Assembly: GCF_006345805.1 (NCBI RefSeq)
Contig: NC_043019.1
Location: 30,565,360-30,629,359 of the forward strand
DNA: 64,000 bases
Source of the DNA: Octopus sinensis
Taxonomy: Eukaryota
Direction of reading: 5' to 3'
In this document: piece by piece, positions 4,621 to 59,500 of the stretch
Layout: each line of letters starts with the position of its first letter
Numbering within the stretch: position 1 is the first letter of the stretch
The notes under the pieces: generated by a model
The model's input: the letters and a program-made list of their open reading frames with translations, nothing else
Told to the model about the DNA's origin: nothing
Database searches by the model: none
Made by a program: the position numbers and the translations under genes

Positions 4621-5358
4621 TACATAATGCAGTTAACTAGTTTTATAGGAACTTCTTTCGAAATTCCTATTTTTGTTTTTCACCCATTAACTTGTGTAGG
4701 TCGAACTATGTAAAACATTAGAGAAAGAAACCAGGCTGTTTCTTGCAATACATACCACTACATAGATCTAAAGCAACATTTTTTCAGGGGCCCTTAAAAT
4801 ACAATTGTGGATCCCCACAAAATCTTATATGGACCCACAGGGGCCACATAGACCCTGGTTGAGAACCACTGGTCTAATTGATAAGGTATTAAAATATAGC
4901 TGCTAAGTTTGAAGTAGTAGGTTACATGCCTGACCCCACAAAACTATTTTAATCATAACATTCTTTTCCAAAAATGTTTCTATTATTCAATACTAAATAA
5001 CAATAAACATAAGTTGTTTACTTATAAACTAGAGCAACAGGTAACAAAAAAAAAAGTAAGAGTTTTTAACATTTTTTTATTCATAAAAAAACCCCTCCCT
5101 AAACCCTGATGTTTACCATTTTCACAATGGTAAATCTGGCACTGGAAAAAAAATTCTATGTTTTTCCTTTCACTCGGCGTTCTAAACAGTATATTTGTAT
5201 TGTTTAAATACTGTATTTGGTTCTGTTAAGATATTTGTGTATGTGTGTGTGTGTATGTATCTTATATTATATTATATATATATATATATATATATAATAA
5301 TCATAAAATGACGACGAAAGAATGAGACCTCAATATTCGGTAAATAAAGGAATTTATA

Positions 5359-5476
5359 TATGTATAGTATAGGACAGTCAGTAAGCTGTCATAATAGGAC
5401 TCAGAGTTTCAAATGCCGGCATTTGAAACTCTGAGTCCTATTATGACAGCTTACTGACTGTCCTATACTATACATA
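5359..5476. repeat. Perfect 118-bp palindrome
   Basis: Exact reverse-complement symmetry centred on gccggc (5415-5420). Confidence 0.95.
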
Positions 5477-56500: not shown

Positions 56501-59500
56501 GGAGTGGCAGTGTGGTAAGTAGCTTGCTTCCCAACCACATGGTTCTGGTTTCAGTCCCACTGTGTGACACATTGGGCAAGTGTCTTCTACTATAACCTCA
56601 GGATGACGAAAGCTTTGTGAGTGGATTTTGTAGATGGAAGCCCATAGTATATATATATATATATATATATATATATATATGTATATGTTTCTGTGTGCGT
56701 GTTTGTTCCCCACCATTGCTTGACAACCAATGTTGGTGTGTTTACATCCCTGTAACTTAGCGGTTCGGCAAAATAGATTGATAGAATAAGTACTACGCTT
56801 ACAAAGAATAAGTCCTAGGGTCGATTCATTTGACTAAAGGTGGTGATCCAGCATGGCCACAGTCAAATGACTGAAATAATTAAAAGAAAAGAAATAAAAC
56901 AATATATACACACTCACTTCTTATATGCATACATGTGTTCACACACACACATATACACGCACACAGAGCATCAGGCTGACCAAAGCTGTGCATTGGGATT
57001 GAACCTTAGACGATATGGATGCAAAGCAAGCTTCTTAACCATGCGGCCACAATGCCACACCTGCACTTATGATGATGAAAATAAATAAATAAAATATTTA
57101 CAAAAAACTTCCACGAACTTTTATTCTCATATTGGAAAAGTTGAAAAGAAAAAGAAAATAATGGTTGCCAACATCAATAAGGTAATTGTGGTGAAGCTGC
57201 TAAAAATAAATATGATTAGCCATTGAAGAGTCTACCTAAAAAGTGGACAGCTAGAAAATTAGTATAATTAGTCATCAGTCAGAAATTTAATTACATTTTT
57301 TTTTTTTTTTTTTTACTTTCCATAACCTTACTAATTAACTGAGACAGACTCACAAACACACATATTCTAGAATTTAGTTAAAGCTGGTTTGCTTTCATCA
57401 TAAGTTAACAAAGTAAAAATGGCTATAACAACAAATGAAACAACAGACAACAACAATAGCAACAGCAACAACAGCAACAACAGCAACAACAACAACAACA
57501 ACAAAAAAAATGTCTTGATGCAGTTTCAGGCAGTGGCTCTCATGGCTTCTGATCTTAATTGATTGGAAGTGTTATCATGTACATTCTTTTGTCTTGGTAT
57601 AAAAGATGGGCTACAGCAAATACTCTGCTCAATACTCCAGCTTTGCTTGTCAGTTACTTTACCTTAACCAGTTGACCATATTCCTTAGTAGCTGAAGATA
57701 TGTGCATCTCTGATCACGAGCAGAAGTAGTGGGGGAGCATCATAGCCATGTTTTGAAAGGAATTCTTTGGGGTTTGAATAACTCACCTCTGGAAACATGG
57801 GTGTTACATTCAATATCCGTAAACAACCCTTATTCAGGGACCTTTTGAGCAAGATGGGCTACTCAACCTGAAGAAAATTCTAACTGGGCCCCACCTACAA
57901 GGTCATGTGCTGTTTATCTTGATATGAGATCACCATGTCATGCACATATGGTTGTGATGCATGTGCCTAGTGTACCCTTATCAGACACCAAAAGCTCCAT
58001 GAGGCTCCAGCAGGGGATGGTGGTGAACCCTGCTGTACTCTTTCACCACAACTTTCTCTCACTCTTTCTTCCTGCTTCTGCTGTACCTGTATTTCAAAGG
58101 GCCAGCCTTGTCACACTGAATCTCCCCGAGAGCTACATTAAGGGTACACGTATCTGTGGAGCACTCAGCCACTTGCATGTTAATTTCACAAGCAGGCTAT
58201 TCCATTGATTGGATCAACTGGAATCCTCATTGTCATAACCGACAGAGTGCCACAACATATATATATATAAGCTCAGCAAAAATTTAGATTCAGATGAATA
58301 TGGTACTTGAGTTAAAGGCACCAGAATTTGGTATGGTATTATCCATATAAATCAAATGGGGTGATTATAATCAAAATAAGCAACAAGGATATCCAAGGTA
58401 GTGTAGTACAATCGTTTCATACTACTTCATTTAATTAAAACAATGTAAGTATTACATCAGTTTTAAAATTTAGAGCACTCATCAGACACATATGGAATTC
58501 TTTTAAAAATTAAATTGACAAGTTCAATTTTCTGCTTAATTCCATTTGCCAACATTACAAAGAGGGTGGATGTATAGACAGAGAGGTTAATTTCATCAAT
58601 AAAAACATGGTAGTAGAAGATCTTAACTCATGGGCAAATTTTTTATCACTGTGTTCACTTTGTTATTTAGATTTACCAATGGGAAGGAGGTTTTCTATTA
58701 AGTTCAGTGAAGACAATCAAGAATTTTTATATTTATAGATAGAGGAAGGGGCAATTTAAATCCAACCCTTTTATGAGGAATTTAGCTCTCCCCATTGGTA
58801 AATCTAAGACAAGGAAATATACATTTGACAATACATACTTGAGTGAAGGTCCCAGCTGTGCATATACATATATATGGAGTGGATTGGATTGCCCATGTTC
58901 AGTTTACTGCAGGACAAAGGTTTCAACATATTTGCTCCACCAGCCATGTTCTGATGTGGAGGTCATGGATTTGAGCTTGAGATCATACTGGTTTGCTGAG
59001 CCTACTCTACTACACTGGCTTGACATGGCAAAGGGGCCCAGTTTTTATACTCTTGCCCACAAGTAGTTAAGTTGATTACATTGATTGCTATGCTTAACGG
59101 GTTCTTTAACAGGTATTTTATCGATCCCAAAAGGATGAAAGGCAAAAACTGACCTTGGCAGAATTTGAACTCAGAATGTAAAGCTGGTCAAAATACTGCA
59201 AAGTATTTCACTCAGTGGGCTAATGATTCTGCCAGCTTGCCTTACACACACACACACACACACACACCACACACACACACACACACACACACACATGCAC
59301 ACATGAGCAGTGCTACCAGAACTCAGTTCTGTCGAGGTGGGCAGGTCTTCTCATGAACCACATATTGCCAGTCATCCCCCAAATCATCCTCATTATCATC
59401 ATCATCATCATCATCGTTTAACGTCCGTTTTCCATGCTGGCATGGGTTGGACGATTCGACCGGAGTCTTGGAAGCCAGGAGGCTGCACCAGGCTCCCATC

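Follow-up and report, generated by a model that had tools for sequence, protein, structure and literature searches.

The main conclusion from our analysis of a 64,000-nucleotide stretch of the Octopus sinensis genome (contig NC_043019.1, positions 30,565,360 to 30,629,359; further called the window) is that the short repeats bearing hammerhead ribozymes which are scattered over it are, with little room for doubt, products of Penelope-like elements (PLEs). The explanation that accounts best for all the observations, and in which we place considerable confidence, is that they are insertion products of PLEs, mainly of the Hydra clade, and that their head-to-head arms were made by priming on both strands of the target. 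Such two-strand priming was probably the main route by which the arms were formed. An earlier note on this DNA had proposed an abundant and diversified, PLE-mobilised system of ribozyme elements. Mobilisation by PLEs, abundance and diversity were all borne out, but most of the repeats proved not to be separate short non-coding elements, as six of the nine families run upstream into a gene for a GIY-YIG endonuclease.

The hammerhead motifs were sought with a strict and a relaxed descriptor of the minimal type-I ribozyme, and 40 dinucleotide shuffles of the window served as the background. The strict descriptor detected four intact cores in the window (16985 and 47060 on the minus strand, 41146 and 47167 on the plus strand) versus a mean of 0.025-0.05 per shuffle, and the relaxed one eight cores versus 0.25-0.5, although the core at 6092 looks spurious. 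In the flanks of the loci (363 kb, a set skewed toward TA-rich DNA) there were 20 intact cores, further families among them, as opposed to 0-1 in each of 10 shuffles. Hammerhead matches are about 100-fold above shuffles, and the excess over shuffled sequence anticipated in the earlier note was therefore found.

Each site, when used as a query against the 2.72-Gb genome, revealed a dispersed high-copy family. The families were named by their window sites: A (13804), B (41133), C (47161), D (55183), E (21296), F (12916), G (20373), H (5425) and I (58401). The majority consensus of every one of the nine (16-54 copies each) contains a full minimal type-I ribozyme, with both core boxes, C3-A9 and G12-A14, the 3-8 pair and an NUH cleavage site. 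Stem I of the consensuses has 4-6 pairs or more, stem II 3-6 or more, and stem III either has no loop or is palindromic or nearly so, in agreement with the type-I form with palindromic stem III that had been predicted. The families differ in details: C has U3-A8, C4 is found in the consensus of A, E and H, the cleavage triplet is NUU in A, B and F, and A bears one additional nucleotide 3' of A9. Loop II of E varies among GNRA tetraloops, stem II shows compensatory changes between subfamilies of B, and altered, compensatory pairs in stems I, II and III distinguish C from its relative in locus L128. The observation in the earlier note that stems differ between families and yet stay paired holds for nine unrelated families with the same core, as does the claimed hammerhead layout, seen by descriptor scan and family consensus at every full site listed. 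The proposed number of about eight dissimilar elements was right as to their distinctness; the count is nine families and, at 14366, a sister of A. Further hammerhead families occur outside the window (L128, L180, L077, L028, L185, L233, L251, L265, L267).

The scale of this system was estimated from exact counts of half-motifs, which are not equivalent to whole ribozymes, in four motif classes over the whole genome. They amounted to 71,479 matches versus 2,350 for controls. The A type, the most abundant, contributed 35,827 (control 1), the E/F/H type 26,056 (control 1,872), the B/D type 8,257 (control 477) and C 1,339 (control 0). The window is a dense spot, with 10 such matches versus 1.7 predicted from the genome average. 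Its copies are mostly damaged, chiefly by CpG decay: G12A occurs in the cores at 12921, 19685, 41051, 55261 and 56114, the 15.2-16.2 pair is broken at 13279 and 13804, and the core or stems are damaged at 21279, 21304 and 58485. The Rfam hammerhead model was absent from the listed matches to the whole window (150 of 310), which comprised 5S rRNA and microRNA-like matches on hairpins and microsatellites, and it gave no match when the two clearest loci were searched.

The link to PLEs was established by tracing the longest copies in the 5' direction. The 3' ends of copies are sharp and the 5' ends ragged, and B, D, F, G, H and I run into a GIY-YIG gene, with the hammerhead located 50-300 nt upstream of the 3' end of elements that encode reverse transcriptase (RT) and GIY-YIG; the postulated connection of the families to PLE termini was thus seen for six of nine. 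It is clearest in B, where the order RT, GIY-YIG, CA-rich 3' region, hammerhead, (TA)n was read in L069 and in all four loci with a long open reading frame (ORF). The B protein contains DKT, YRDD and a GIY-YIG domain flanked by CxxC..E..N..CxH, a long Asn-rich linker and no CCHH; CxCX5C was not seen in this linker when B ORFs were read by eye. Its match to the Pfam GIY-YIG model is weak (E 0.013), and its database relatives are mostly of about 700 aa, many with PF26215. A profile made from such B-type (Hydra-type) proteins detected coding remnants upstream of the other families. For F (L291, one of five loci) and D (L295, one of five), thumb and endonuclease sequences were found and continuity was read through to the hammerhead. 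GIY-YIG remnants were found for G in three of 20 loci (L182, L187, L188), for H in four of 20 (L192, L200, L208, L210), on the inverted arm, and for I in one of 20 (L224). The CxxC/CxH motifs around E and N recur in the remnants of D, F, G, H and I. The Hydra clade is marked by DKT, by CxxC and CxH around E and N without CCHH, by a CxCX5C linker and by (TA)n targets (Craig 2021, PMC8557442). Since copies of the six families continue upstream into GIY-YIG/RT genes, they are taken to be truncated PLE copies, and their protein motifs and (TA)n targets classify them as 5'-truncated members of the Hydra clade. F and H share near-identical endonuclease ends and related tails but unlike hammerhead stems (L291, L192, L200), which suggests that they are sister families whose ribozyme stems changed faster than their flanks.

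A different possibility is that the repeats are independent non-coding ribozyme elements, retrozymes or SINE-like (short interspersed nuclear element-like) units, which merely borrow PLE enzymes. For the system as a whole we consider this unlikely, because the 5' ends of B, D, F, G, H and I are ragged and these families lead on into GIY-YIG genes, and because even A and E occur with longer 5' extensions. These extensions are non-coding (over 1 kb and CA-rich in A, about 400 nt in E). What speaks for independence comes from families A and C. Copies of A mostly start at one position and are about 200 nt long, the family is the most abundant, and it is seldom inverted; an opposite-strand pair was seen in only 1 in 100 of unselected genome matches. 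Family C consists of 363-nt units, each with one type-I hammerhead, which follow one another head to tail with 99% identity between neighbours and form arrays of six or more. It has no ORF (the longest stop-free frame is 65 aa) and is strongly self-paired when folded as a circle (z -8.5). C thereby corresponds to the genomic definition of a non-LTR (lacking long terminal repeats) retrozyme, an ORF-less tandem unit of 150-450 nt with a type-I hammerhead. It is the only one of the nine families shown as such a unit; for the other eight, tandem copies were found in 0-3 loci per family of 19-30. On contig 1 (e.g. 28192959-28194432 and 15979204-15979947), some C motif matches lie about 720 nt apart, twice the unit length, which reflects either alternate damaged units or a dimeric variant. 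C is probably a non-autonomous derivative, for which similar machinery would use multimeric or circular RNA as the template.

The anatomy of the insertions was studied in 216 non-redundant loci (230 examined, 14 overlapping or duplicate ones dropped). The 3' ends adjoin (TA)n or (TTA)n in 189 of them, versus 9-12% of random positions; the placement of most sites in or beside (TA)n, claimed for the window, thus holds there and genome-wide, the pair at 47 kb being an exception. A head-to-head arm is present in 109 of the 216 loci, with frequencies of 17/26 in B, 18/23 in C, 1/19 in D, 24/30 in E, 26/30 in F, 8/20 in G, 8/20 in H, 5/20 in I and 2/28 in A. The tail-to-tail arrangement was not encountered in 188 loci of eight families and was seen in 1 of 28 for A. 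Among the first places on contig 1, taken without selection, opposite-strand neighbours within 1.5 kb were minus-then-plus 17 times and plus-then-minus never for C, and again 17 to 0 for B/D; a count by hand for E/F/H gave 13 to 0. The 3' end is fixed at two main sites in each family, spaced by 50-150 nt (at three in F), and the two arms differ in their 3' end in 98 of 107 pairs. The queries for B, C and G were located within the short end and introduced no bias; in these families the ends were different in 38 of 43 pairs (p 2.5e-7 relative to 50%), and the B and C pairs of the window follow this rule. Intact coding PLEs of this genome have the same inverted arm and two ends. The fold-back, proposed earlier as the design of the ribozyme element, is an ordinary scar of PLE insertion that full-length coding copies also carry. 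Target duplications are unreadable where the target is (TA)n.

In the mechanism that we propose, the PLE endonuclease would nick both strands of a self-complementary TA target, and each 3'-OH would prime reverse transcription, one from a distal and the other from a proximal start site, both arms being templated by element RNA of one source. Both cDNAs would abort early, and end joining would unite their 5'-truncated ends, at times with a templated filler. One C pair has at its junction (L005:1380-1496) about 110 nt that exactly copy DNA located about 500 nt downstream, a templated insertion at the joint. In L1 twin priming, primers on both target strands produce an insertion with an inverted 5' part, and the ends are joined. 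Here, in contrast, each family has fixed start sites, and overlap of the arms is frequent, which would call for strand displacement or a second RNA. The hammerheads would be passengers inherited from the parent terminus and decaying neutrally in most genomic copies. They are probably weak, dimer- or protein-dependent cutters in source transcripts, and any action of the ribozyme is probably confined to source transcripts that are multimeric.

A self-priming model has also been proposed for such arms: the first cDNA would fold back on a palindrome and serve as its own template, until copying ends at an AT-rich internal site able to pair with the target (Arkhipova 2013, PMC3846280). Junctions indeed often lie on palindromes (5417/5418, 18.0 kb, 21291/21292), in 19 of 21 E pairs the 5' stopping point is common to both arms, variants are common to both arms in C and E, and the short ends have microhomology to (TA)n. 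This model requires, however, that the short-end arm be nested in the long-end arm, and in B the short-end arm extends further 5' in 8 of 14 pairs. Moreover, four of the 14 B pairs, where the long-end arm is wholly within the tail, and the G pair of the window have no overlap, which rules self-priming out for such loci. F was left out of the nesting test because its reference is repetitive and gave five artefact rows. The non-overlapping B pairs thus favour priming on both target strands over a self-primed fold-back. As a general account self-priming appears improbable, but it may be responsible for some E-type and collapsed copies.

That both arms derive from one source is indicated by shared variants. 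In C, arms agree in 69 of 72 comparisons at subfamily-diagnostic sites, versus 36 expected, and the fraction of shared non-consensus letters is 0.36 between arms versus 0.07 between loci in E, and 0.35 versus 0.08 in I. Several observations weigh against two-strand priming by PLEs as the common origin. The diagnostic sites in C are linked, not independent, and conversion between arms could yield the same agreement. Concordance of arms is absent in B (0.02 within versus 0.06 between loci) and weak in F, G and H, and its values below expectation in B and F were attributed to alignments entering flanks. The query for F spanned its own fold-back, and the loci were the best matches per query, so that the fractions are biased toward young copies. 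Connections of D, F and I to coding genes come from one locus each, and no ORF was found upstream of A (40 loci) or E (37 loci). Finally, a lizard PLE showed in vitro neither strand preference between its start sites nor homology between start site and target (PMC11167929), whereas AT-rich microhomology coincides with the short ends here.

One may also suppose that the inverted pairs are artefacts of assembly or sequencing, from chimeric reads of the fold-back kind, or hairpins rearranged at a later time, and that the likeness to hammerheads is incidental, but this is hardly credible. In its favour, the genome is rich in (TA)n, a sequence hard to assemble, and the pair at 21.3 kb lies inside a 1,019-bp palindrome that takes in flanking DNA. 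Against it, arms are asymmetric with family-specific ends and independent CpG decay, a 12-bp target duplication surrounds the 47-kb pair, the orientation bias is 34 to 0, hammerhead matches exceed shuffles about 100-fold, and nine unrelated families keep core and pairing, with compensatory changes among relatives.

With two-strand priming as the preferred account, a wider proposition may be put forward tentatively, its parts taken together being somewhat less probable than an even chance. PLE integration would be obligately two-handed, each nicked strand being assigned a different fixed RT start site on RNA of one source, and this, instead of self-priming, would produce the head-to-head form and the one-sided tail. 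The genome would in addition harbour hammerhead-bearing PLE ends in numbers of the order of 100,000, including the SINE-like A and its sister A', which left the fold-back mode and may be filed among unclassified SINEs.

Two putative relics of PLE RT in the window had been offered as support for mobilisation by PLEs. The one at 30.5 kb does encode a PLE RT, but of another clade. It has no match to the Hydra-type ORF. Its young relatives, with ORFs of up to 1,120 aa, carry a zinc-finger linker ahead of GIY-YIG (Neptune/Nematis type, by eye) and a variant hammerhead peculiar to them; inverted 5' copies occur, and the two 3' ends lie in (TA)n. In five such young intact PLEs (L261, L262, L264-L266) the terminal hammerhead, 3' of the long ORF, appears to carry C for A9, and two alternative 3' ends lie about 55 nt apart in (TA)n. 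We considered this family as the mobiliser of the window families and rejected it, because its intact relatives end in a different hammerhead and have no terminus in common with the nine families. The other relic (3430-4620) failed every PLE test: it is unsupported as a PLE, giving no match with Pfam, the Neptune-type protein, the Hydra-type protein or the Hydra-type profile, and searches found no close genomic relatives and no database homologue. Judging by its motifs, it may be a decayed RT of a LINE (long interspersed nuclear element).

Table 1. Copies of the hammerhead families, and the RT relic, in the window
Feature	Position	Strand or arms	Remarks
Family H, inverted pair collapsed inside stem II	5297..5470, centre 5417/5418	both	left arm to long 3' end, right arm to short end; only the GAAA/stem III/cleavage half of the hammerhead kept, whole motif in H consensus
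Family F, inverted pair	12820..13001	minus arm 12820-12916 (long end), plus arm 12912-13001 (short end)	(TA)n both sides; core at 12921 with G12A and stem III mismatches
Family A, copy of about 200 nt	13188..13384	-	hammerhead 13313-13279; C4, additional nucleotide past A9, zero-loop stem III; 15.2-16.2 pair lost to CpG decay
Family A, copy	13730..13870	+	hammerhead 13804-13838; 3' end cut by other repeat
Sister family A'	14365..14489	+	5'-truncated inside core; 3' end in (TA)n
Family F, fragment (5' part)	15675..15733	-	absent from the earlier site list
Family B, fragment from stem III to short 3' end	15832..15912	-	between (TA)n tracts
Family B, insertion	16718..17031	both; minus arm 16718-17007	minus arm with intact hammerhead (core 16985) and long 3' end; second, tiny plus-strand arm terminating at short end
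Family E, pair collapsed at palindromic stem III	17966..18054	both
Family A, decayed copy	19581..19791	-	G12A
Family G, pair	19795..20461	minus tail fragment 19795-19855, plus arm 20363-20461 (short end)	arms without overlap, about 500 nt of other repeat DNA between them; plus-arm hammerhead near-intact (core 20377)
Family E, pair	21142..21441	both	long arms, both hammerheads decayed
RT relic, Neptune/Nematis-type PLE	30558..30860	+	58% identity to L262 ORF, E 8e-27
Family B, inverted pair	40917..41408	both	minus arm to short end (41051, G12A), plus arm to long end with intact hammerhead 41141-41223; (TA)n flanks both sides
Family C, inverted pair of 363-nt unit	46857..47402	both	short end left, long end right; two intact U3-A8 hammerheads, 47066-47025 (minus) and 47161-47202 (plus); 12-bp target duplication 46845-46856 / 47403-47414, no (TA)n flank
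Family D, copy	55031..55293	-	core 55261, G12A; (TA)n both sides
Family D, second copy of same insertion	55883..56146	-	inside 852-bp tandem duplication, not an independent event
Family I, copy	58270..58800	-	core 58485, stem I closing pair broken; 3' end in (TA)n; upstream boundary approximate

The pairs with a minus-strand copy on the left and a plus-strand copy on the right, reported in the earlier note at four loci of the window, are all present (Table 1), and the genome-wide orientation bias agrees with them; the pairs described as collapsed at 5.4 and 18.0 kb are so. That list was incomplete, as the sites at 12916, 16903 and 19795/20373 are inverted pairs too. The pair at 13.2-13.9 kb consists of head-to-head A copies separated by 345 nt of TA-rich DNA, and is atypical of a family inverted in only two of 28 loci; the repeat cutting its right-hand copy (13871-14245) is itself a long inverted pair around a (TA)n tract, with an Rfam hairpin match. 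The sites 55183 and 56035, listed as two, do belong to D but represent one insertion within a tandem duplication (54957-56686, 97% identical), which contains the D copy and SINE copies. The E pair at 21.3 kb is the centre of a palindrome at 20797-21815 that reaches about 350 bp into each flank and includes a duplicated G fragment; it is either a rearrangement after insertion or an effect of assembly.

About 90 tracts of (TA)6+ are present in the window. Its one long host ORF, for phosphoglucomutase-2 (6417-8327, minus strand, 636 codons stop to stop), has no introns in the coding region and is possibly a retrogene; its best named relatives are from molluscs, at about 60% identity. A near-complete LINE (49466-53640, plus strand) consists of an ORF1-like frame followed by apurinic/apyrimidinic endonuclease and RT frames, separated by a single stop (51523-51525). 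The 5S rRNA-like sequence at 31459-31577 (plus strand; 79 bits, over the Rfam gathering score) carries several substitutions and may be a pseudogene or a 5S-derived repeat. A 99-codon frame at 62860-63159 (plus strand), with no Pfam match, looks like the terminal part of a transposase of the mariner type.

The literature already describes hammerheads, pairs on opposite strands, tails on one side, insertion into (TA)n and a Hydra element of Octopus, and with the parts known no new class is opened. In the literature we did not find the set of nine families, its scale in this genome or a case against self-priming based on counts, although supplements of PMC7229834, PMC13282606 and the bioRxiv report cited below may list these families. 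No earlier report of twin priming in PLEs was found, and cephalopod hammerheads were found only in Craig 2021; the words ribozyme and Hydra are absent from the main text of a recent repeat annotation of Octopus vulgaris. What is gained is a large natural data set on how PLEs form inverted ends. The alternation of ends in 98 of 107 pairs, together with the non-overlapping arms, separates two published models and yields a prediction for experiments in vitro. For annotation, it means that very abundant short repeats of this genome are PLE ends and one retrozyme. The fold-backs are predicted to be a plausible source of double-stranded RNA if transcribed.

Among known systems, the Hydra-clade PLEs of Craig 2021 (PMC8557442) are the closest. 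Common features are a single ORF with RT and C-terminal GIY-YIG, DKT and CxxC/CxH, a hammerhead near the 3' end, (TA)n targets, 5' truncation, an inverted 5'-truncated copy and a tail at one end. The inverted copy, the one-sided tail and the bias to microsatellites were described both there and in Arkhipova 2013 (PMC3846280). The supplement of PMC8557442 lists Hydra-1_Obim of Octopus bimaculoides, with a hammerhead and (TA)n targets; by eye, the endonuclease remnant of G closely resembles that of this element, and stems III and I of E match the 3' hammerhead of the Hydra record preceding it. In contrast to the one Octopus Hydra family listed in that paper, at least six more are found here, with tens of thousands of end fragments. 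The tails are 50-150 nt, as opposed to 30-40 in its Hydra PLEs, and B has a long Asn-rich linker.

Small PLE hammerheads are known (Lunse et al. 2016/2017, as cited in PMC6765202), and those of metazoan PLEs (Cervera and de la Pena 2014, PMC4209133) resemble ours in many respects. Many unrelated families per genome, a short helix I, a palindromic or absent loop III, an additional nucleotide past A9 and the U3-A8 variant are found in both. In both, too, most motifs stand alone and come from truncated PLEs, and there are pairs on opposite strands, spaced by 100-700 bp. The 71,479 exact half-motif matches here exceed the 2,000-9,000 per genome given there, the methods being different. The minimal PLE hammerheads were inactive as monomers and weak as dimers in vitro (PMC4209133), and the U4C change, equivalent to C4 in the consensus of three families here, lowers activity (PMC3088659). 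Because of these two properties the most abundant family, A, may be poorly catalytic.

Retrozymes have been described as PLE derivatives (Cervera and de la Pena 2020, PMC7229834; Li et al. 2026, bioRxiv 10.64898/2026.07.22.740005). Family C is similar to the animal non-LTR retrozymes of these reports in its ORF-less tandem unit with one type-I hammerhead each, high self-pairing, low GC and target duplication longer than 4 bp. Unlike them, it has a minimal U3-A8 hammerhead, is usually inserted as an inverted pair and has two alternative ends. None of the listed sources of C is on record as RNA; contigs of three runs presumed to be RNA and of one run of unknown type cover parts of its unit, do not show strand, ends or circles, and were not counted as evidence.

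As to the mode of insertion, Penelope of Adineta vaga (PMC3846280) likewise shows head-to-head pseudo-LTRs, an optional tail on one arm and palindromes at junctions, with target duplications of 8-10 bp, but the non-overlapping arms here do not fit the self-priming account given for it. The Poseidon PLE protein of Anolis, a predicted dimer, nicks and extends both strands in vitro and uses two internal RT start sites, hammerhead cleavage not being needed in that system (Frangieh 2024, PMC11167929).

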